The position numbers were made by a program, and so were the translations under genes. The notes under the pieces are model-generated. The model was not told the DNA's origin, did not search any database, and worked only from the letters and a program-made list of their open reading frames with translations. Positions 1-26,656 of a stretch of DNA of 64,000 nt are shown here, one piece after another (positions within the stretch are counted from its first letter, which is position 1; the number at the start of each line of letters is the position of its first letter). Origin of the DNA: Haloprofundus marisrubri (GTDB taxonomy: Archaea > Halobacteriota > Halobacteria > Halobacteriales > Haloferacaceae); assembly GCF_001469955.1 (NCBI RefSeq), contig NZ_LOPU01000018.1, positions 1-64,000 on the forward strand. Reading direction: 5' to 3'.

Positions 1-132
1 GTACCTCACGCGCACGCGCGTAGCGTGCGGCTGTTGCACGGGCGCTCACACGTGCGCACACCCGCGCCTGCTAGCGGTTTTCTCCGGACAACCGCGAAAG
101 ATTTAGGCCGTCCCTTCGCATATCGCCTGCCA

Positions 133-2649
133 ATGAGCAAGGGGCCGGAACTGATAATCACCGAAAAGGACAACGCCGCGAGGCGTATCGCGGACATCCT
201 CAGCGGCGAGTCCGCCGACGCCGAGCGGATGAACGGCGTGAACGTCTACAAGTGGGGCGGCAAGCGCTGTATTGGCCTGTCGGGCCACGTCGTCGGCGTC
301 GACTTCCCGCCGGAGTACAACGACTGGCGCGACGTCGAACCCGTCGAACTCATCGACGCACCTATCGACAAACATCCGACGCAGGAGAACATCGTCGCCG
401 CACTGCGACGACTCGCCCGCCACGCCTCCAGAGTGACTATCGCCACCGACTACGACCGCGAGGGCGAACTCATCGGGAAGGAAGCGTACGAACTCGTCCG
501 CGACGTGAACGAGGACGCGCCCATCGACCGCGTGCGCTTTTCGTCCATCACGCAAAACGAGGTGACCGAGGCGTTCGACAACCCCGAGGACCTCGATTTC
601 GACCTTGCCGCCGCCGGCGAGGCCCGACAGATTATCGACCTCGTGTGGGGCGCGGCGTTGACGCGGTTTCTCTCGCTGTCGGCGCGACAACTCGGCAACG
701 ACTTCATCTCCGTCGGTCGGGTGCAGGGACCGACCCTGAAACTCATCGTCGACCGCGAACGCGAAATCGACGCGTTCGACCCCGAGGACTACTGGGAACT
801 GTTCGCTGACCTCGAAAAAGACGACTCGGGAGAGAACTTCGAAGCGCAGTACTTCTACCCCGACGAGGACGGCAACGAGGCCGAACGCGTCTGGGACGAG
901 GAGACGGCCAACGAGGTGTACGACACGCTTCAGACCGCGTCGTCGGCGACGGTGCAGTCGGTCCGGCGTCGCACGCGGACGGACAAGCCGCCCGCGCCGT
1001 TCAACACGACCCAGTTCATCCGCGCCGCAGGCAGCATCGGCTACTCCGCACAGCGCGCGATGAGCATCGCCGAGGACCTCTACACGGCGGGTTACATCAC
1101 CTACCCGCGAACCGACAACACGGTCTACCCTGACGACTTGGACCCCGAGGAACTCGTCTCGGAGTTCGTCGGTACGAATCGTTTCGGCGACGACGCCGAA
1201 TCACTGCTGGACCTCGACGAACTCGACCCGACGGAAGGTGACGAGGAGACGACCGACCACCCGCCGATTCACCCGACCGGCGAACTTCCCTCCTCCGCGG
1301 ACATCTCCGAGGACGAGTACGAAGTGTACGAACTCGTCGTCCGGCGCTTTTTCGCCACCGTCGCCGAGGCGGCGAAGTGGGAACACCTCCGCGTCGTCGC
1401 CGACGTCGACCCCGACGGCGAACCACTCTCGCTGAAAGCCAACGGGAAGCGACTCGTCAAAGAGGGCTATCACGCCGTCTACCCGTACTTCAACAACACC
1501 GAGAGCTTCGTCCCCGACGTCGAGGAGGGCGAGGCACTCGACGTGACGGAGACGCGCTTCGAGGCTAAACAGACCCAACCGCCGCGACGGTACGGCCAGT
1601 CTCGGCTCATCGAGACGATGGAGCAGATGGGCATCGGGACGAAGGCGACCCGCCACGACGTGATTCAGAAGCTCTACGACAGAAACTACATCGAGAGCGA
1701 CCCGCCGCGGCCGACCCGTCTCGCCCGCGCCGTCGTCAGCGCCTCGGAGGAGTTCGCCGACCGAATCGTGAGCGAGGAGATGACCGCGCAACTCGAATCG
1801 GACATGCTCGCCATCGCCGACGGCGAGAAGAACTTCGAGGACGTGACCGAGGAGTCCCGCGAGATGCTCGAAACCGTCTTCGAGGGGCTGATGGAGTCCG
1901 GCGACGAGTTGGGCAAACAGCTCCAAAAATCGTTGAAAGCCGACAAGACGCTCGGGCCGTGTCCGGAGTGCGGCGAGGACCTGCTCGTCAGAAAGAGTCG
2001 ATACGGGTCGTACTTCGTCGGCTGTGACGGCTACCCCGACTGCGAGCACACCCTCCCGCTGCCGTCGACCGGCAAACCGCTCATCCTCGAAGACGAGTGC
2101 GAGGAACATGGCCTCCACCACGTGAAGATGCTGGCCGGGCGCAAGACGTTCGTCCACGGCTGTCCGCAGTGTAAAGCCGACGAAGCCGACGAACAGGACG
2201 ACGAAGTAATCGGGGAGTGTCCCGAATGCGGTGAGGAACACGGTGGCGAGTTGGCAATCAAGCAACTCCGCTCGGGTTCCCGCCTCGTCGGTTGTACGCG
2301 CTATCCGGAGTGTGACTACTCACTGCCGCTGCCGCGCCGCGGCGAAATCGAAGTCACCGACGAGGAGTGTGAGGAGCACGGGCTTCCACACCTCGTGGTT
2401 CACAACGGCGACGAACCGTGGGAACTCGGCTGTCCCATCTGCAACTACCGCGAGTACCAAGCCCAGCAGGTCGGCGGCGACGAACTGCAGAGTATCTCCG
2501 GTATCGGCGAGAAAACCGCTGAAAAGCTGAAAGATGCCGGTATCGCGGACGTGCCGGGACTGAAAGACGCCGACCCCGACGATATCGCCGCGAGCGTCGA
2601 GGGCGTCGGTGCGGATACGGTTCGGGACTGGCAGGCGAAAGCTGATTAG
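133..2649 (+). CDS. topA: DNA topoisomerase I (archaeal type IA) with C-terminal Zn-ribbon repeats and an HhH tail
   Basis: N-terminal Toprim motifs ('ITEKDNAARRIA', 'TDYDREGE'). Several C4 zinc-ribbon repeats ('CPECGEDL...CDGYPDCEH'). C-terminal helix-hairpin-helix ('ISGIGEKTAEKLKDAGI'). The track ORF begins at 25; the in-frame ATG at 133 (MSKGPELIITEKD) is the likelier start. Confidence 0.9.
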   Translation: MSKGPELIITEKDNAARRIADILSGESADAERMNGVNVYKWGGKRCIGLSGHVVGVDFPPEYNDWRDVEPVELIDAPIDKHPTQENIVAALRRLARHASRVTIATDYDREGELIGKEAYELVRDVNEDAPIDRVRFSSITQNEVTEAFDNPEDLDFDLAAAGEARQIIDLVWGAALTRFLSLSARQLGNDFISVGRVQGPTLKLIVDREREIDAFDPEDYWELFADLEKDDSGENFEAQYFYPDEDGNEAERVWDEETANEVYDTLQTASSATVQSVRRRTRTDKPPAPFNTTQFIRAAGSIGYSAQRAMSIAEDLYTAGYITYPRTDNTVYPDDLDPEELVSEFVGTNRFGDDAESLLDLDELDPTEGDEETTDHPPIHPTGELPSSADISEDEYEVYELVVRRFFATVAEAAKWEHLRVVADVDPDGEPLSLKANGKRLVKEGYHAVYPYFNNTESFVPDVEEGEALDVTETRFEAKQTQPPRRYGQSRLIETMEQMGIGTKATRHDVIQKLYDRNYIESDPPRPTRLARAVVSASEEFADRIVSEEMTAQLESDMLAIADGEKNFEDVTEESREMLETVFEGLMESGDELGKQLQKSLKADKTLGPCPECGEDLLVRKSRYGSYFVGCDGYPDCEHTLPLPSTGKPLILEDECEEHGLHHVKMLAGRKTFVHGCPQCKADEADEQDDEVIGECPECGEEHGGELAIKQLRSGSRLVGCTRYPECDYSLPLPRRGEIEVTDEECEEHGLPHLVVHNGDEPWELGCPICNYREYQAQQVGGDELQSISGIGEKTAEKLKDAGIADVPGLKDADPDDIAASVEGVGADTVRDWQAKAD

Positions 2650-2702
2650 GGTCTGACATTCCTTTAGAAAGAGTGATCAGATAGCAATATTTCTCTAAAG
2701 AT

Positions 2703-3713
2703 ATGTCCGCTGTCGGTAATGTCTTTCTAGCCCCTTGTAGTAATCAAAACGCCGCAAATCATCTTCAAGAGACCGTTGTCGGTGGTGTTCCCGCAGCGGT
2801 CTACAGACAATACACGAGCAAGGACTTCGGGGACTGCGTCTCTGTCTGGGGTGTTTCGCCCGGTGGTAAAAAGTACACAGATCAAATGGCCAGAGGAGAT
2901 ATTCTACTGTTCTACACCGGCGCAAAGCGATACACGTTGGCAGCACGCGTTATCGGAACCGAAGAAAATCGAGAGTTGGCGGCCGAACTTTGGACAGATT
3001 ACCAAATTGGGCTTCGGGATGACGACGAACTCTGGCCGCACGTTATTTATCTCTCAGATATTGTGGCCGTCCAGATTGATAGCACTGAGGTACACCACGA
3101 GCATGCCGGACACAGTAGAGGACATCCTCAGAATTTCATGCGGCTCAACGATCGTGGTCTGAGAAACATCAGAGAGAAGTACGGGAGCGTCCGTTCGTTC
3201 CTCGGTTACGGAGTCAAAGACGTTCGTCCAGATACGTTCGAGAAAGCAGATAACGAACTGCACGAAAAAGTCAAACGAACCCCCGAACTCACCGAACCGG
3301 AACGGAAAGAGGAGACTACGACTCGGAAGGCACGATCTGCAGCCTTTCGCAGTGGTATAAAAGAGTTATACGAATACAAATGTGCAGTTTGTGGGGCTAA
3401 CCGGATGACTCCAAGTGGTCGCCCTGAAGTGGAGGCCGCCCACATCTACCCTCGAAGCGAGAACGGGCAAGACGACTTCAGGAATGGGCTTGCCCTCTGC
3501 AAACTTCACCACTGGGCCTTTGACAATGGCTGGTTGGGTATTCGGGATGATCTTACGTTGTTAGTCAGACATCGACCTCAGGTAGCTGGATTTGCAGAAT
3601 TCTCTTCGCTTGAGGGAACCAGACTCATACTCCCTCCCGATGACAGATACCACCCTGCTAAGATCTATCTCCGAGAACATCGTGCACTTCACGGCTTCAG
3701 CGCCGAACTATAG
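2703..3713 (+). CDS. PUA-like (EVE-type) domain fused to an HNH nuclease; candidate modification-dependent (type IV-like) restriction endonuclease
   Basis: N-terminal ~150 aa fit an EVE/PUA-like pattern (W...G...ARGDILLFYTG...YTLAARVIG...ELWTD...W). C-terminal HNH motif: 'CAVCGANRM...EAAHIYP...NGLALCKLHHWAFDNGW'. The gene sits in a ~1.1 kb islet of clearly lower GC than its flanks. Confidence 0.7.
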   Translation: MSAVGNVFLAPCSNQNAANHLQETVVGGVPAAVYRQYTSKDFGDCVSVWGVSPGGKKYTDQMARGDILLFYTGAKRYTLAARVIGTEENRELAAELWTDYQIGLRDDDELWPHVIYLSDIVAVQIDSTEVHHEHAGHSRGHPQNFMRLNDRGLRNIREKYGSVRSFLGYGVKDVRPDTFEKADNELHEKVKRTPELTEPERKEETTTRKARSAAFRSGIKELYEYKCAVCGANRMTPSGRPEVEAAHIYPRSENGQDDFRNGLALCKLHHWAFDNGWLGIRDDLTLLVRHRPQVAGFAEFSSLEGTRLILPPDDRYHPAKIYLREHRALHGFSAEL

Positions 3714-3740
3714 CCATTCGTTCCGCACGCTTTTTAACAC

Positions 3741-4472
3741 ATGCCGGGAGTAGACAGTCCAATGACTCTGCCGTGGGAATCGTGGGACCACATCCTCAAA
3801 ATCGACCCCGACAAGGACCTCGTCGACGGTGAGACGTTCGCCGACGCCTGCGCGACCGGCACCGACGCCATCGAAATCGGCGGGACGCTCGACATCACGA
3901 CCGAGAAGATGCAACGCGTCGTCGACGCCTGTGCGGAACACGACGTACCGCTGTATCAGGAACCGTCGAACCCCGGCGTCGTCGTCGACGACGACGCCCT
4001 CGACGGCTACCTCATCCCGACGGTGTTCAACGCCAGCGACTCCTTCTGGGTCACCGGCGCGCACAAAGAGTGGGTCCGCATCGAGAACGGCCTCGACTGG
4101 AGTCGCACGCACACCGAGGCGTACATCGTGCTCAACCCCGAGGCCTCCGTCGCACAGTTGACCGACGCCGACTGTGACCAGAGCGCCGACGACGTGTCGG
4201 CGTGGGCCGCCGTCGCCGAGAAGATGTTCGGACAGGACATCGTCTACATCGAGTACTCCGGAATGTACGGCGACACCGAGAAAGTCAAAGCCGCACAGGA
4301 CGCCCTCGACGAGTCGACGCTGTTCTACGGCGGCGGCATCCGAAGCTACGACGCCGCCTACGAGATGGGCCAGTGCGCCGACGTCATCGTCGTTGGCGAC
4401 TTGCTGCACGACGAGGGTGTCGACGCGGTCAGAGAGACCGTCGAAGGCGTCAAGGACGCCCACGCCGAGTAG
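3741..4472 (+). CDS. geranylgeranylglyceryl phosphate synthase (PcrB/GGGPS family)
   Basis: Motifs '[10 protein letters not shown]', 'YIEYSG' and '[14 protein letters not shown]...VIVVGD'. The true start may be the internal Met at 3762 (MTLPWESW). Confidence 0.85.
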
Positions 4473-4564: not shown

Positions 4565-5035
4565 CTACTCCTCGGTGACTTCGCTAAAGGGTGTGTACGG
4601 GCAGGTGTACTCGTTGCGGATGAGTTCCTCCTCGACGATTTCGAAGCCGAGCGAACTCAGGTCGCGGCCGATTCGGCTCAGGTCGTCGCTGTCTTCGCCG
4701 ACGACGGTGATGTGGACGTTCTCGTCGCCGGTCATAATCTCGCGGACCGAGACGACGCCGTCGACGTCGCAGGCCTCCCGTGCGAGTTGTTCGCGCTTGG
4801 GAATCGGCGCAGTACAGAGGATGAGCGTGTACAACTGGTAGCCGGCGGCCTCGAAGTCGATGTCGAGGTGCGTTCCACGGACGATGTCACTGTCTTCGAG
4901 TCTGTGGATTCGGTTACGAACGGTGCTCGGAGAAACGCCCTTCATCTCGGCGATTTCGCGGGCGGACGTTCCGCGAGCGTCGCCCTGAAGCGCGTAGATA
5001 ATGTAACGGTCGAGGTCGTCGAGTTCCCGCGACAT
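4565..5035 (-). CDS. Lrp/AsnC family transcriptional regulator
   Basis: 156 aa starting MSRELDDLDRYIIYALQGDAR. N-terminal HTH followed by a C-terminal RAM/ACT-like domain. The ATG at 5035 was confirmed on the minus strand; the track ORF extends further upstream in the same frame. Confidence 0.85.
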   Translation of the reverse strand: MSRELDDLDRYIIYALQGDARGTSAREIAEMKGVSPSTVRNRIHRLEDSDIVRGTHLDIDFEAAGYQLYTLILCTAPIPKREQLAREACDVDGVVSVREIMTGDENVHITVVGEDSDDLSRIGRDLSSLGFEIVEEELIRNEYTCPYTPFSEVTEE

Positions 5036-5189
5036 ACGCTGAAACGTGACCGACAGGTGCAAATGTGTTTTGTTCCGCCCACCGTCTCGAAGCGGCGGTG
5101 GTCGAAGTCGTGGTAGACCCCGCGGACCCCGTGCGGACCCCGCGGACCCAACGGATTCAGGGAGCCAAACTGGTCCGAACGTCTCTCGA

Positions 5190-5753
5190 CTACATCGGTC
5201 GCCGACGGTCGTGAAACGGTCCCTCACCGTCGAACCGACCGTCACCATCGAACGTTCTACTGGCCTCACTTCGATTTCGGGGGTCCAAGAGCGACCGGCC
5301 GTCGTCCGACCCCGCCGCCGTCTCCGTCGACCATTCCGGCGGTACTCGGGCAACGACCTCGTCGACGCGGCGTCCGAGTGCGTCGGCTAACACCGACGAT
5401 GCGCAGACCGTCTCGATTCCCGATGTCTCGAACACCTCGTGGTTTCGGGGGTCGTTGACGAGAACGACGACGGTTCTCACGCCGACCTGCGTTCGCAGCA
5501 GTTGTGCTACGAGGAGGTTGACGCTGTCTCGCGGTGACGCGGCGACGGCGAGCGTCACGTCTTCGCCGGCCGCCTCCCGAAGTGAGCGTGCGTCGGTCAG
5601 CGTCGCTTCGGTGGCACGAGTACCGCCGCTCCGTACGCGGATTACCGTCTCGGCGTCGTCGTCGACGTACCGAACGTCAACGCCGCGGTTCCGCAACTGC
5701 TGTGCGAGTAGGGTGCCGACGTGGCCGCCGCCGACGACGAGTGCTGTTGACAT
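5190..5753 (-). CDS. TrkA-N (NAD-binding) domain protein; potassium transport regulatory subunit-like
   Basis: MSTALVVGGGHVGTLLAQQL carries a Rossmann GxGxxG and matches the TrkA-N family. The ATG at 5753 was confirmed. Confidence 0.75.
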   Translation of the reverse strand: MSTALVVGGGHVGTLLAQQLRNRGVDVRYVDDDAETVIRVRSGGTRATEATLTDARSLREAAGEDVTLAVAASPRDSVNLLVAQLLRTQVGVRTVVVLVNDPRNHEVFETSGIETVCASSVLADALGRRVDEVVARVPPEWSTETAAGSDDGRSLLDPRNRSEASRTFDGDGRFDGEGPFHDRRRPM

Positions 5754-5986: not shown

Positions 5987-7291
5987 ATGCAAAACCGAAC
6001 GTACGCAGCAGACGCCGAACCCGGCGACACGGTGACGCTCGCCGGTTGGGTTCACGAAGTTCGTGACCTCGGCGGTATCGCATTCCTCATCCTGCGGGAC
6101 ACGACCGGCAAGATTCAGGTCAAGTTCGAGAAAGACGAGATGGACGAGGACCTCGTCGAGGCCGGACTGGGCGTCCACCGCGAGAGCGTCATCTCGGTGA
6201 CCGGCGACGTCGGCGAGGAACCGCGTGCGCCCACGGGCGTCGAAGTCGTCCCCGAGAGCCTCGACGTCGTCGCCGAGGCGGACCCACAACTGCCGCTGGA
6301 CCCCTCCGGCAAGGTCGACGCGGAACTCCCGACGCGTCTCGACAACCGGACGCTCGACCTCCGCAAAGACGAAGTAAAGGCTATCTTCGAGATACGTGCA
6401 GCGGTCCAGCGCGCCGTCCGCGAGAAGTTCCGTGACCTGCACGCGACCGAAATCAACACGCCGAAAATCGTCGCCACGGGAACCGAGGGCGGCACCGAAC
6501 TGTTCCCCATCACGTACTTCGGTCAGGAAGCGTTCATGAACCAGTCGCCGCAGCTGTTCAAACAGCTCATGGTCGGCTCGGGTCTCGAGCGCGTCTTCGA
6601 GGTCGGTCCCATCTTCCGCGCCGAAGAACACAACACGCCGCGACACCTCAACGAGGCAACTTCCATCGACTTCGAGTCGGCGTTCGTCGACCACACGGAA
6701 GCGATGGATGTCTGTGAGGCCGTCGTCAAGGCCGCCTACGAGGCCGTTGAGGAGGACTGCCAGCAGCAACTCGAAGCGCTCGGACTCGAAGACGAGTTCG
6801 AGGCCCCCTCGGGCGAGTTCCCGCGTCTCACCTACGAGGAAGCCATCGAACGCATCAACGCGTCGGGCGAACTCGACGAGCATCTCGTCTGGGGCGACGA
6901 CCTGCCGACCGAAGGCGAGAAAGCGCTCGGCGAGGACGTCGGCGAACATTACTTCATCACCGACTGGCCCAGCGAAATCAAGCCGTTCTACATCAAGGAC
7001 CACGACGACGACGAGTCGCTGTCGACCGGGTTCGACATGATGCACCCGAACATGGAACTCGTCTCGGGCGGTCAGCGTGAACACCGCTACGAGCATCTCG
7101 TCGCCGGCTTCGAACAGCAGGGTCTCGACCCCGAGTCGTTCGACTACTACACGAAGATGTTCAAGTACGGCATGCCCCCGCACGCCGGCTTCGGCCTCGG
7201 CGGCGAGCGTCTCATCATGACGATGCTCGGCCTCGAAAACATCCGCGAAGCGGTGCTGTTCCCGCGAGATCGCCAGCGTCTGAGCCCCTAA
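5987..7291 (+). CDS. aspS: aspartyl-tRNA synthetase, archaeal type
   Basis: 434 aa. N-terminal OB-fold anticodon-binding domain. Class II motifs ('FRAEE', 'GGERL', 'FPRD'). Confidence 0.9.
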
Positions 7292-24072: not shown

Positions 24073-25914
24073 TCAGTCGGATTCGACCGGTTCGGCTTGT
24101 TCGCGTGCGTTGGCGCTCTCCTCGACCGCTTTCGTGAGCGAGACGTTCAGTGACAGCATCGACGCGACGCCGCCGAGGACGGTGACGATGTTCTTCACCG
24201 CGTGGTCGAGAATCGCCGCACCGACGGCGACGGGCGCCGAGATGGGACTGAGCGCGACGACGAGGATGGTGAACGCCCCTTCGTAGAGGCCGATACCACC
24301 CGGCGACAGCGGAAGCACTTTGGCGAGGTTGCCGACGCTGACCGCGAAGAAACTCACGGCCACGAGCGTCACGAGTGACATCTCGCCGCTCGCACCGAGG
24401 GCGACGAGGACGAGAATCGCGGTGACGACGTCGAGCACCCAGATTGCGAGGCTGCTGACACCCACACGGGCGAACGCGTCGCGGCGACCCGCCGTCCGCT
24501 GCAGGTCGACGACGAACTGCTCGACGATGCCGGCGACGTGGTCGGCGTACGAGTCCGAGGAGAACCGACCGAGCGCACTCCGGATGAAGTTACGGTCCGA
24601 ACGTGCGCTGGCGACGATTGCTACCACGGCGAGTATCGCTGCGACGCCGACCCCGGCGGCGACGAACGCTGCTGTACGACCCGCTTGGCGCTCGCTTGCA
24701 CCGACCTGCCCGGCACCGCTGCCGAGCAGTCCGTCGACGAGTGCGCTCGTGTTGCCGGTGGCGACCAGTCCCAACAGTACCGTTCCGGCGAGAACGGTAA
24801 TCGTGAGTAAGTCGAACACCCGCTCGGCTGCGAGCGACGCGAATCCGGACGGATACGGGATGTTCCGTCGGGCTTTCACCACGTACGCGCGGACGGCGTC
24901 ACCGGCGCGTGCGGGAAAGACCAGGTTCCCCGTCTGACTGATGAAGATAGCACCGGTCAGGAATCCGGTCTTCTCGCGGAAGCCGAGTTCCGCGAGGATG
25001 TCGCGGTAGCGGAGACCGCGAATCGGCCACGAAACGAGATACACGACGGCCGCCAGTAGTACGAGCGCCGGGTCCGCCGCACCCATGACGTCGAGTACCT
25101 CCTGCGGGTCGAGATACACCGTCATGAGCATCAGCGCAACGAGCGTCAGTGCGACACCCGCCGCCATCGTCACCCGACGGTCGATTCGCGGACGAACCGA
25201 AAGCTCCCACCAAGTGCGGCCGATTTGGCTACCCATCCCGAAGATGTCGCGGACGAGGTCGACTTTCGTGTCGCCTTTCGGCTCCCAGTCGACGGAGAAC
25301 TCCGCGACTCGAAGGCCCTTGCGCTGGGCGCGAACCAGCAGTTCGGTGTCCCAGAACCAGTGGTTGTCCTTGATTTCGTCTTTGAGTTGGTAGAACGCCT
25401 CGCGGCTCATCGCCTTGAAGCCGCACTGGTGGTCACGGAGTTTCGACCGAAGGAACAGTCGAACCATTCCGTTGTATCCGCGGCTCGGAATACCCCGTTT
25501 GAACGGGCGGTCCGCGACGTTCTCGGGCATCCACCGCGACCCGGTCGCGACGTCGTACTCCTCGCTACGAACGCGCTTGACGAGTTCTTCGAGGTGGCGC
25601 ATGTCGGTGGCGAGGTCGGTGTCGAAGTAGACGAGGGTCTCACCGTTGGCGGCCTCGAAAGCTCGTTCCAACGCGCCCCCACGCCCGAGTCGCTCGTCGG
25701 AGTGGAAGTGACGGACTCGGCTGTCTTCGGCGGCCAACTGGTCGGCAATCTCTGGTGTGCGGTCGTCGCACCCGTCCTCCGCGACGATGACCTCGACGGC
25801 ATCGCTGGGGAGAAACGCTGCAAGTGTCTCAAGCGTGGTCCGCACCGTCCCCTCTATCGTATGTTCCTCGTTGTACGCAGGAAGGACGACGCTGACCTCG
25901 ACCGGGCGGTCCAT
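24073..25914 (-). CDS. GT2 dolichyl-phosphate hexose synthase-like glycosyltransferase fused to a C-terminal multi-TM domain (AglD-like)
   Basis: N-terminal 'VSVVLPAYNEE...DGCDDRT...YFDTDLATD' (GT-A fold, DxD motif). About 350 aa of C-terminal TM helices. The two-part layout resembles Haloferax AglD. Confidence 0.75.
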   Translation of the reverse strand: MDRPVEVSVVLPAYNEEHTIEGTVRTTLETLAAFLPSDAVEVIVAEDGCDDRTPEIADQLAAEDSRVRHFHSDERLGRGGALERAFEAANGETLVYFDTDLATDMRHLEELVKRVRSEEYDVATGSRWMPENVADRPFKRGIPSRGYNGMVRLFLRSKLRDHQCGFKAMSREAFYQLKDEIKDNHWFWDTELLVRAQRKGLRVAEFSVDWEPKGDTKVDLVRDIFGMGSQIGRTWWELSVRPRIDRRVTMAAGVALTLVALMLMTVYLDPQEVLDVMGAADPALVLLAAVVYLVSWPIRGLRYRDILAELGFREKTGFLTGAIFISQTGNLVFPARAGDAVRAYVVKARRNIPYPSGFASLAAERVFDLLTITVLAGTVLLGLVATGNTSALVDGLLGSGAGQVGASERQAGRTAAFVAAGVGVAAILAVVAIVASARSDRNFIRSALGRFSSDSYADHVAGIVEQFVVDLQRTAGRRDAFARVGVSSLAIWVLDVVTAILVLVALGASGEMSLVTLVAVSFFAVSVGNLAKVLPLSPGGIGLYEGAFTILVVALSPISAPVAVGAAILDHAVKNIVTVLGGVASMLSLNVSLTKAVEESANAREQAEPVESD

Positions 25915-26257
25915 TGTCCATCTATGCAGCGAGAGTGGCTAAGAAGCTTCTGACTCTCAGGATACGTGGAATTGTAAACCGAGAGTTCATTCACGATACC
26001 CTACTCGCTGTATCGGCCGAAATCGACCGATTTCGGGGCCGTAATGGGAGATTACCGCGGATTTTTGGCCGTAAATACAGCCTTACGTGACCATAGTTTG
26101 GGGCATACAGTCACGAAATATTTACTATTAGGCCATCGTACCAGGCCACGCTCAGACCCACCAGTTACGCTCCCTTTACGACTGTAAATCGCAAGACTGC
26201 AGCGTGTTAACCTCACGTACCAAATGCCATATTAGTGCCAGTCACCACGCCTGAGAT

Positions 26258-26491
26258 ATGAGCGTTACCACGGCCACCGAGCTCAGTGACAAGCAGCAAC
26301 GGATACTCCGGTACCTCCGGACGAACGCCACCACGCAGACGTACTTCAAATCGCGGCTCATCGCCGACGAACTGGGTCTGAGCGCCAAAGAAGTCGGTGC
26401 GAACATGACGGCCATCCTCAACGGTGATTTCGACGTGACGGTCGAAAAGTGGGGCTACTCGTCGGGCACGACGTGGAAAGTCAGCACGTAA
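26258..26491 (+). CDS. small conserved hypothetical protein (possible winged-helix)
   Basis: 77 aa, MSVTTATELSDKQQRILRYLRTNATTQTYFKSRLIADELGLSAKEVG; HTH-like. Follows an AT-rich intergenic region. Confidence 0.5.
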   Translation: MSVTTATELSDKQQRILRYLRTNATTQTYFKSRLIADELGLSAKEVGANMTAILNGDFDVTVEKWGYSSGTTWKVST

Positions 26492-26656
26492 CGAGTTCAC
26501 TCCGCTGACATCGGTCCTCCTCCCTCCGGGCACTCGCACGCGACACTCCGGGCAGAGTGTTTTCCTGCGGATATCCTACACGACCACGAGCAGCGATGAC
26601 TCTGAAAGCAGGCGTTACGCACAGTGGCAAACGAGTGCCACATCCAACAGGGGTCG

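Follow-up and report, generated by a model that had tools for sequence, protein, structure and literature searches.

A reader–HNH fusion gene between topA and the GGGP synthase gene of Haloprofundus marisrubri, a predicted modification-dependent restriction endonuclease

A compositionally foreign single-gene islet

In the 64-kb stretch of H. marisrubri DNA analysed here (the window), one ORF, encoding 336 aa, is the sole occupant of the interval between topA and the gene for a PcrB-family GGGP synthase (GGGPS). The features of the locus are:

133..2649, + strand: topA (DNA topoisomerase I), left flank; Pfam Topoisom_bac, E = 9.6e-123, also Toprim, Zn_ribbon_Top1 and HHH_5
2650..2702, + strand: AT-rich upstream spacer of 53 nt, nearly identical in Haloprofundus halophilus
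2703..3713, + strand: reader-HNH fusion gene, predicted type IV restriction endonuclease; 336-aa ORF, stop codon TAG at 3711-3713
3714..3761, + strand: GGGPS promoter region, the right boundary of the islet, abutting the HNH stop codon (by-eye junction alignment, 13 loci)
3762..4472, + strand: PcrB-family GGGP synthase gene, right flank; Pfam PcrB, E = 1.8e-55

The topA ORF is listed as 25..2649, from GTG 25, and its probable start is ATG 133, which makes the product 838 aa long, as in H. halophilus. Likewise the GGGPS ORF is listed as 3741..4472, from ATG 3741; its probable start is ATG 3762, within a conserved CCAATGA, and the H. halophilus gene, called at 236 aa, has no upstream ATG.

A preliminary description, made from the letters of the window, had taken the 2650-3740 segment to hold exactly one gene and, by eye, to be near 50% GC, and both points were borne out on computation. 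The gene has a GC content of 51.5% (0.515) against ~64% for host genes; same-length windows elsewhere in the 64-kb window average 0.640 (sd 0.022, minimum 0.562), placing the gene at z = -5.8 as the most AT-rich stretch of the whole. In 300-nt windows GC passes from 0.61-0.66 to 0.51-0.52 across ~2550-3750 and back to 0.63-0.66, the dip being confined to that interval. GC3 is 0.50 in the reader-HNH gene, 0.83 in topA, 0.88 in GGGPS and 0.77-0.88 in the other plausible genes. The gene is a compositionally foreign, single-gene islet.

Comparison of junction sequences indicates that the islet begins, on its left side, at the topA stop codon or just past it. The 2650..2702 spacer contains TCAGATAG, common to the Halogeometricum pallidum locus, and is unrelated to the post-topA sequence of empty-site genomes; it travels with the reader-HNH gene and presumably holds its promoter. 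At the right edge TCCGCACGCTTTTTA (3722-3736), in the GGGPS promoter region, is kept in empty-site genomes in the by-eye alignment of 13 loci. No tRNA was found in the 64-kb window, no Rfam family reached its gathering score there, the window's ORF list holds no integrase near the islet, and the search of the islet edges gave short, chance-level repeats only, none of them convincing as direct or inverted repeats; the impression of an islet lacking integrase, tRNA and obvious direct repeats was correct.

An HNH_2 nuclease module preceded by a helical linker

The protein has 33 full-length homologues, with the alignment beginning at M1, and the EVE-like and HNH motifs quoted in the preliminary description are present in its translation. 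An AlphaFold2 model of the 336 aa has a mean pLDDT of 85.7 and a pTM of 0.52, the relative arrangement of the domains being uncertain. Searches with Pfam, NCBIfam and PADLOC recognised the HNH half alone. The gene can be divided into:

2703..3212, + strand: reader domain (aa 1 to ~170), PUA-superfamily, YTH-like, of the T. gammatolerans McrB N-terminal type
3231..3368, + strand: inter-domain linker with two predicted helices (aa 177-189 and 205-222, from the secondary structure of the model) and a conserved R211-x3-F215
3381..3542, + strand: HNH_2 core (aa 227-280), C227-x2-C230 ... H247 ... N261 ... C266-x2-H269-H270 ... D274
3543..3710, + strand: C-terminal extension (aa 281-336), kept in P0087/HhiV4I and all family members (P311, P318, H326, R327, G331)

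The C-terminal assignment to an HNH_2-type nuclease, already suspected, is well founded: the Pfam HNH_2 model matches at E = 2e-13, above its gathering score, and the PADLOC HNH model at E = 1.2e-14, and PADLOC models for REases of types II and IV match weakly besides. Across the 33 homologues C227, C230, H247, N261, C266 and H269 are invariant, H270 and D274 reach 90% conservation or more, and the catalytic and zinc residues, intact in the alignment, align with those of TagI and EcoKMcrA. By its sequence the core is a predicted zinc-stabilised beta-beta-alpha-metal nuclease motif, with both catalytic and zinc-binding residues in place.

The nuclease module of P0087, a 381-aa protein of HHPV4 (Haloarcula hispanica pleomorphic virus 4), is 49% identical to the window protein over 156 aa, gap-free; the alignment starts at aa 177, and the linker is part of the module that the two have in common. 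From its source virus, length and domains, P0087 is almost certainly HhiV4I, which has been tested and is a Dam/m6A-dependent type IV enzyme preferring Mn2+ (PMC11037411). In sister proteins a DpnI_C winged helix, an SRA or an MTaX1 domain is swapped in before the same HNH module. The linker helix of VcaM4I is auto-inhibitory (PMC7897488), and by analogy the linker of the window protein may act in a similar way.

The best NCBIfam match, PT-DNA_restrict (NF045808, E = 3.4e-25), would suit a phosphorothioate-dependent enzyme of the ScoMcrA/SprMcrA type; this match is partial, covering aa 186-327 in the HNH half only, and scores 88.7 bits against a curated cut-off of 180 bits, and the phosphorothioate reading was rejected as scarcely credible.

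A YTH-like reader domain of the TgMcrB type

The N-terminal domain had been described as an EVE/PUA-like reader, of which the PUA part stands and the EVE part does not. Fold, profile search and homologues all place the domain in the PUA superfamily, and it is homologous in both sequence and fold to TgMcrB's N-terminal domain (TgMcrB-NTD): the reader-domain profile matches the PDB entry of TgMcrB-NTD (6p0f/6p0g) at E = 1e-5, over only ~80 residues, and its WG motif aligns with TgMcrB and PH1033. Pfam EVE (PF01878) gave no match to the window protein even at E <= 1, a threshold at which it matched 18 of the 33 homologues (best 3.5e-4); on sequence grounds the reader is best regarded as an EVE relative at superfamily level and not as a demonstrated member. 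The YTH sequence model, of eukaryotic type, gave no significant match to the window protein. A weak NCBIfam match to PRK00809 at aa 47-77 (E = 0.12) lies below use as evidence.

Among the 33 homologues W49, D66, F70 and Y71 are invariant, and Y77 and W97 nearly so. Judged by conservation alone, these residues, W49, F70/Y71, Y77 and W97 among them, may line a pocket that takes up a flipped base.

The reader domain is modular: a threshold of E <= 1e-3 gives 235 representatives, and ten long proteins sampled from these carry it fused to a McrB-type AAA_5 domain (7/10), DEAD/DEAH helicases (2/10) or HNH (1/10). Stand-alone reader-domain proteins of ~160-190 aa exist as well, and RNA is bound by most YTH and many EVE/PUA domains (PMC10542128, PMC11037411), as would be expected if the gene encoded an RNA-directed or housekeeping protein, its reader binding modified RNA and its HNH domain serving RNA/DNA metabolism, not defence. 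We consider this highly improbable: TgMcrB-NTD has little affinity for RNA (PMC7544203), the reader is found fused to McrB GTPases, the nuclease is of restriction type, and the gene is patchily distributed, foreign in composition and lost in sister species.

Probable long residence in a variable restriction slot

The preliminary description had proposed a recent horizontal acquisition. The foreign composition agrees with this; the word recent does not survive the synteny comparison, which had been suggested as a check for a new insertion, as H. halophilus, Halogranum rubrum and Halogeometricum pallidum all carry the gene at this site. The H. halophilus gene is 93.3% identical at the nucleotide level and its flanks are 91.4% and 92.1% identical, a flank-like divergence; identity stands at 96-98% for codon positions 1 + 2 and at 85% for position 3, and this comparison points to a pattern of purifying selection. 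The homologues at the site in Halogranum rubrum and Halogeometricum pallidum are 55-59% identical, and Halogranum amylolyticum retains a 3′ remnant of the gene.

That a sister species has only a 3′ remnant, and that the contents of the slot turn over, might suggest that the H. marisrubri gene is itself what is left of an old insertion, no longer functional and in decay. This is barely plausible, given an intact, full-length ORF in which every catalytic and family-invariant residue is present, and given that its substitutions against H. halophilus are strongly third-position-biased.

Another reading is that of a selfish HNH gene, or homing endonuclease, standing on its own: it would cut one of the flanking genes or the topA-GGGPS junction where this is empty, and be copied in via repair. 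In favour are the lone HNH gene, its foreign composition, its exact placement between two highly conserved genes, its presence at that site in four genera or species, and the lack of an integrase or repeats. The flanks of HNH-carrying genomes are, however, no closer to the window than those of HNH-free sister genomes; the flank comparison gave no co-conversion signal, on which ground homing or recent cassette transfer was rejected. Further, the same slot is occupied elsewhere by genes unrelated to this one (Mrr, McrB-like, DpnII and type IIG); relatives within the family are found away from this site, in proviruses and plasmids; and the architecture joins a reader to an HNH_2 domain that is 49% identical to that of a restriction enzyme tested as methyl-dependent. 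We therefore regard homing as very unlikely. We take the gene instead to be long-resident cargo of the variable topA-GGGPS slot, and we conjecture that slot contents are exchanged by recombination within the conserved flanking genes.

Compared across the Haloferacaceae, the topA-GGGPS junction is a recurrent restriction hotspot, occupied by different systems in related genomes. Elsewhere it holds Mrr, DpnII with a Dam-like MTase, or Eco57I/MmeI-like (type IIG) enzymes, and in Haloferax namakaokahaiae a McrB-like protein bearing the same type of reader. Mrr_cat genes in the slot of the five Haloferax species sampled encode 334-355 aa, three of them 334 aa. H. volcanii is absent from the loci sampled for slot contents; from locus tags, HVO_0682 presumably adjoins topA there. 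Pfam, NCBIfam and PADLOC gave no match for slot ORFs of 237 and 244 aa (L023 and L012), nor for the 468-aa ORF that partners the McrB-like gene (L025).

Function: a probable solitary type IV enzyme

We propose that the product of the gene is most probably a restriction endonuclease of type IV, solitary, dependent on DNA modification and of predicted YTH-like-HNH architecture, making a strong candidate of what the preliminary description had offered as a candidate modification-dependent enzyme: a reader is fused to an HNH_2 nuclease 49% identical to that of P0087, and for EVE-HNH enzymes restriction that depends on modification is proven (PMC7897488, PMC6765204). Family members are also encoded in proviruses, on plasmids and in defence neighbourhoods whose other genes include integrases, pleolipovirus VP3, GmrSD and a DUF1156 methylase. 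In this proposal the YTH-like, PUA-fold domain would probe DNA and flip a modified base into its conserved, largely aromatic pocket; binding of the base would then position or release the HNH nuclease lying behind the helical linker, and the predicted catalytic residues H247, N261 and H270/D274, supported by a zinc scaffold of Cys3His type, would cut the DNA nearby, probably as a dimer with a divalent metal, by analogy with VcaM4I and HhiV4I. No methyltransferase partner would be required. No cognate methyltransferase adjoins the gene, its neighbours being topA and GGGPS, as they are in H. halophilus, Halogranum rubrum and Halogeometricum pallidum. Host DNA, we propose, would be safe because it lacks the target mark.

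Which mark this might be is a separate matter. The preliminary description had named 5mC, 5hmC and m6A together; a YTH-like reader of the TgMcrB type shifts the likeliest target to m6A, over 5mC or 5hmC. The closest characterised relative, TgMcrB-NTD, prefers N6mA DNA over 5mC or unmodified DNA (PMC7544203; PMC7680126, citing Hosford 2020), and this makes m6A the leading candidate; since the homology covers only ~80 residues at E = 1e-5, specificity is not reliably transferable, and by this analogy we hold m6A to be nearly an even prospect. Haloarchaea often have m6A from type I systems, plus m4C (PMC5867850), and a context-free reader of m6A or m4C would therefore clash with the host. The same enzyme class might alternatively sense a modified cytosine (5mC, 5hmC, glucosyl-hmC or m4C), like VcaM4I and TagI, which we think unlikely. 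Readers of the PUA fold in HNH enzymes often read 5mC or 5hmC.

In the literature searched, “YTH-HNH” is named once, as future work (PMC11037411). The YTH-like-HNH architecture is most likely one that has been named and is uncharacterised, the window gene being a further predicted member of a known enzyme class. The m6A-dependent type IV enzymes in the cited literature are few (DpnI, winged-helix fusions and TgMcrBC). A halophilic YTH-like reader wired to HNH would offer a specificity module of a new kind and might find use as a reagent; otherwise, the gene would be an ordinary member of a well-understood class.

More tentatively, and as less likely than not, we suggest that an uncharacterised, m6A-reading YTH-like-HNH class might do the job of Mrr, in a fixed slot that alternates epigenetically incompatible systems. 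The occupants that would be incompatible are methyl-dependent nucleases (Mrr, YTH-like-HNH and YTH-like-McrB) on the one hand, and the GATC-methylating DpnII or type IIG systems on the other. If such alternation is true, the slot would determine which lineages can exchange DNA. Mrr is a known barrier to transformation of H. volcanii with Dam-methylated DNA (PMC5867850, PMC6471742); if the role here is Mrr-like, deletion of the gene, or the use of unmethylated DNA, should ease genetics in Haloprofundus, Halogranum and Halogeometricum. The topA-GGGPS slot is also a compact, easily scored case of defence-gene turnover between core genes, with no recognisable mobility machinery.

Comparison with known systems

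The VcaM4I/TspA15I EVE-HNH group (PDB 6yex; PMC7897488, PMC6765204) reads DNA with an EVE domain, whereas the window protein belongs to another branch, the TgMcrB-type YTH-like readers; its HNH is of the HNH_2 (TagI/HhiV4I) type, unlike that of the VcaM4I/TspA15I group, its likely target differs, and its host is archaeal and halophilic. TagI, an SRA-HNH enzyme dependent on 5mC (PDB 6ghs), has a nuclease resembling the window HNH and an SRA, not YTH-like, reader; the reader of EcoKMcrA (6ghc) is the NEco domain, again not YTH-like. In McrB of Thermococcus gammatolerans (TgMcrB; PDB 6p0f/6p0g; Hosford 2020, as cited in PMC7680126 and PMC7544203) the reader sits on a GTP-driven AAA+ motor partnering the McrC nuclease, whereas the window reader is fused straight to HNH; the window protein and its neighbourhood have neither an AAA domain nor a partner gene, and the reader alone is common to McrBC and the window protein.

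HhiV4I (PUA-wH-HNH, from HHPV4; PMC11037411) has in common with the window protein, via P0087, the linker, the HNH_2 core and the C-terminal extension, and both belong to the haloarchaeal gene pool. HhiV4I, though, uses a DpnI_C winged helix to read m6A and carries an SRA-like domain in addition; the window protein has neither, carrying a YTH-like reader instead, and DpnI_C, which is present in P0087, P0048 and P0097, gave no match to it.

H. volcanii Mrr (HVO_0682), a type IV enzyme of 334 aa (PMC5867850), lowers transformation by GATC-methylated DNA (PMC5867850, PMC6471742). It is unrelated to the window protein, its nuclease being of the PD-(D/E)xK Mrr_cat type, and its gene runs on the opposite strand; yet both are solitary, Mrr is methyl-dependent, and Haloferax Mrr_cat genes lie at the same topA-GGGPS slot.

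A single AT-rich gene between topA and the GGGPS gene

The only long ORF between topA and the PcrB-family GGGP synthase (GGGPS) gene encodes a reader-HNH fusion of 336 aa, and it is the lowest-GC stretch of the 64-kb window. The neighbouring features, and one other that is mentioned below, are as follows.

ORF listed as 25..2649 (likely start ATG 133), + strand, topA, Pfam Topoisom_bac E = 9.6e-123
2703..3713, + strand, reader-HNH gene
ORF listed as 3741..4472, + strand, GGGPS gene, Pfam PcrB E = 1.8e-55
26258..26491, + strand, 77-aa ORF, function not assigned, inside an AT-rich stretch

Both flanking ORFs are listed from positions that are most likely too early: topA from 25 rather than from ATG 133, which gives 838 aa as in Haloprofundus halophilus, and GGGPS from 3741 rather than from ATG 3762, at a conserved CCAATGA and downstream of a TATA-like CTTTTTA at 3730-3736. 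The preliminary description of a low-GC islet holding exactly one gene, with no integrase, tRNA or obvious direct repeats at its edges, is borne out. The gene has a GC content of 51.5%, against a mean of 64.0% for other windows of the same length (sd 2.2%, minimum 56.2%; z = -5.8); in 300-nt windows GC drops from 0.61-0.66 to 0.51-0.52 over about 2550-3750 and recovers afterwards, and GC3 is 0.50 in the gene versus 0.83 in topA and 0.88 in GGGPS. The window contains no tRNA and no Rfam family at gathering score, there is no integrase ORF near the gene, and only short, chance-level repeats were found at the islet edges. The window's second most AT-rich stretch (25900-26650, about 0.56 GC) is mostly intergenic and is where the 77-aa ORF lies.

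An HNH_2 nuclease joined to a YTH-like reader

The protein consists of a reader with a YTH-like PUA fold and, after it, an HNH_2 nuclease that is intact. The nuclease previously called at the C-terminus matches Pfam HNH_2 at aa 227-280 (E = 2e-13; 50.4 bits, cut-off 21) and a PADLOC HNH model at aa 188-328 (E = 1.2e-14). Moreover, aa 177-332, spanning the linker helices, HNH core and C-terminal extension, align without a gap and at 49% identity with P0087, a 381-aa DpnI_C and HNH_2 protein of Haloarcula hispanica pleomorphic virus 4. By length, source and domains this corresponds to HhiV4I, a Dam/m6A-dependent type IV enzyme that prefers Mn2+ and cleaves close to paired G6mATC sites (PMC11037411). 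The NCBIfam model “phosphorothioated DNA-binding restriction endonuclease” reaches 88.7 bits against a cut-off of 180, and in the nuclease half only, so that it is uninformative on the reader; phosphorothioate dependence was thus ruled out.

For the reader (aa 1 to ~170), the 336-aa protein itself gives no match to Pfam EVE, YTH, ASCH or SRA, even at E <= 1, but 18 of 33 homologues touch EVE at that threshold (best 3.5e-4). A profile built from just the N-domain finds the N-terminal domain of Thermococcus gammatolerans McrB, TgMcrB (PDB 6p0f/6p0g, E = 1e-5; full-length 6ut5, E = 1.8e-4), with the WG and GD-x-(V/L)LFY motifs in alignment; PH1033 is marginal (E = 0.3). The homologues' EVE matches and the TgMcrB match mean that the earlier term “EVE/PUA-like” holds at the superfamily level, while the specific relative is, judged by profile similarity, the YTH-like McrB reader and not EVE. 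The TgMcrB reader is reported to bind N6mA dsDNA or ssDNA better than unmodified or 5mC DNA, to have low RNA affinity and to hold a flipped-out adenine in its crystal structure (PMC7544203); a second paper says that it “specifically targets 6mA-modified DNA” (PMC7680126). Residues W49, G50, D66, L69, F70, Y71, Y77 and W97 are invariant or nearly so among the homologous readers, and are candidates for the base pocket.

Both domains recur in other architectures. When aa 1-176 were searched exhaustively against 1.84 billion representatives, 235 proteins came up at E <= 1e-3, among them stand-alone forms of ~160-190 aa, HNH-sized forms of ~320-350 aa and far longer ones. Of the long proteins, ten were examined: a McrB-type AAA_5 domain occurs in seven, one of which has an MrcB_N reader as well; two have a DEAD/DEAH helicase together with HhH motifs, and one has an HNH. 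P0162 (1720 aa) and P0169 (1244 aa) combine the reader with DEAD/DEAH helicase, ResIII and helix-hairpin-helix domains. The same HNH module also sits behind DpnI_C winged helices, SAD_SRA and MTaX1. In P0033 and similar proteins (467-506 aa), the same reader and HNH are preceded by a further ~130-aa domain, covered by the precomputed PF26348, which we infer to be SRA-like from its overlap with SAD_SRA matches in relatives. This three-domain layout parallels the PUA-wH-HNH of HhiV4I, whose m6A-reading winged helix holds the position taken by the reader. Such shuffling of readers and effectors is a hallmark of modification-dependent restriction enzymes (PMC6765204, PMC7897488, PMC10542128), and the reader, from the company it keeps, is probably a swappable sensor of restriction systems.

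A hypervariable slot with an old resident

Across Haloferacaceae the stretch between topA and GGGPS is a hypervariable slot. From other species we fetched eighty loci around GGGPS (L001-L080), in which the gap closes at about locus position 6000. In 56 of them topA has the same orientation and its end lies no more than about 5.5 kb upstream; the size of the gap varies widely.

Contents of the topA-GGGPS slot
Empty, 40-200 nt: 17 genomes
Homologue of the gene, same strand and position: Halogranum rubrum (59% identity), Halogeometricum pallidum (55%)
Mrr_cat genes, 334-355 aa, opposite strand: five Haloferax species
McrB-like AAA_5 gene bearing the same reader N-terminally, with a 468-aa partner: Haloferax namakaokahaiae
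DpnII endonuclease and D12 (Dam-like) methylase: Haloferax larsenii, L007:3276-5905
Eco57I/MmeI-like type IIG enzymes: three genomes
Low-GC ORFs, 237/244 aa, no family: two genomes
Non-defence genes (BAT regulators, DUFs, PQQ propeller): other genomes

Three of the five Mrr ORFs match H. volcanii mrr HVO_0682 in size (334 aa); the latter, a type IV gene of 1005 bp (PMC5867850), lowers transformation by GATC-methylated DNA (PMC6471742). If the H. larsenii DpnII and D12 methylase act on GATC like their namesakes, their epigenetic polarity would be opposite to that of the methyl-dependent Mrr of other Haloferax. In H. namakaokahaiae (L025:2734-5647, - strand) the McrB-like protein is of 524 aa, and its first ~200 aa are 33% identical to the window reader with all invariant residues present; its 468-aa partner, which has no match in Pfam, NCBIfam or PADLOC, presumably plays a McrC-like role. 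The 244-aa ORF of Haloferax profundi (L012:5130-5864, - strand) and the 237-aa ORF of Halogeometricum limi (L023:5067-5780, - strand), at GC 0.49-0.52 and with no family in the same three databases, could be hitherto unrecognised defence genes. In junction alignments, the GGGPS promoter block TCCGCACGCTTTTTA is conserved in empty-site genomes; it lies in the window at 3722-3736, 9 nt past the HNH stop codon. The haloarchaeal restriction-modification survey that we checked does not mention this hotspot.

The nearest protein, P0001 of H. halophilus (96% identity), lies in the same topA-gene-PcrB order; compared with the window, nucleotide identity reaches 93.3% in the gene, 91.4% in topA and 92.1% in GGGPS. 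At codon positions 1 and 2 of the gene identity is 96-98%, at position 3 it is 85%; this bias, with the flank-like identity, means that the gene predates the split of the two lineages and is conserved under purifying selection. With the family-conserved residues also kept, a pseudogene was ruled out. Between PcrB and an AsnC-type regulator, H. halophilus carries a Na+/H+ exchanger gene and a 71-aa ORF (L081:9825-11285), for which the window has no space (PcrB ends at 4472, regulator ORF 4565..5353); this marks the window as DNA of another strain or species.

In Halogranum amylolyticum (L002:5908-6008 approx.) the gene is gone except for its last ~43 nt, joined to the GGGPS promoter; this 3′ piece, which together with the promoter is 89% identical to H. 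rubrum over 101 nt, is a deletion remnant. Flanks of HNH-carrying genomes are no closer to the window than those of HNH-free sister species, so that nothing in them points to recent transfer or homing from one of these genera to another. A homing endonuclease is an unlikely reading: co-conversion tracts are missing, many unrelated restriction genes occupy the slot, and family members are also found at unrelated loci. Those other loci are AT-rich mobile or defence neighbourhoods that also contain integrases, pleolipovirus VP3, MazG, GmrSD and a DUF1156 methylase. One of these family members, P0039 (L085:2852-7035, on a 145-kb contig of Salinigranum marinum), is immediately downstream of a TGT-family gene (possibly DpdA-like) and a BrxC/BrxD-like ATPase gene, which hints at a link to a DNA-modification or defence cluster. 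We conclude that the gene goes back to the mobile, AT-rich gene pool of haloarchaea, and that in this lineage it has long been settled in a slot with turnover. The recent horizontal acquisition proposed earlier gains no support from the junction comparison, since H. halophilus, H. rubrum and H. pallidum have the gene or its homologue at the same site.

Proposed mechanism and relation to known systems

The proposal of a candidate modification-dependent restriction enzyme is largely right: a PUA-fold reader is coupled to an intact HNH_2, the gene is solitary with no methylase beside it, and both domains occur in restriction-system contexts. An RNA-directed housekeeping role is unlikely, given the patchy distribution, loss from sister species and McrB-type domain partners. 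As a restriction enzyme, the protein might flip a modified base into the conserved aromatic pocket of its reader; base capture could then license the HNH, perhaps by releasing linker-helix auto-inhibition as in VcaM4I (PMC7897488), and the HNH, probably dimeric, would cut DNA nearby with a divalent metal. Host DNA would be spared where it lacks the target mark. From kinship to TgMcrB and positional analogy to HhiV4I, we tentatively put forward N6-methyladenine as the leading candidate for this mark; the main alternative, a reader of modified cytosine, seems to us rather unlikely. The predicted m6A-dependent restriction is directly testable, and the gene may be of practical use in haloarchaeal genetics.

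“YTH-HNH” has been named as a fusion for future characterisation (PMC11037411), the only mention in the literature that we searched, and public records label the homologues “HNH endonuclease” or “putative restriction endonuclease”. In their 2023-24 census preprint (PMC10542128), Bell and co-authors cite their own 2020 survey as the catalogue of McrB fusions with EVE/YTH readers. PUA-superfamily-HNH fusions are an established type IV class; among its members, VcaM4I and TspA15I use EVE-type readers and TagI uses an SRA domain as its reader (PMC6765204, PMC7897488). That the topA-GGGPS junction behaves as a hotspot is a further, modest observation; the gene itself is a so far uncharacterised representative of this known class, which explains it well.
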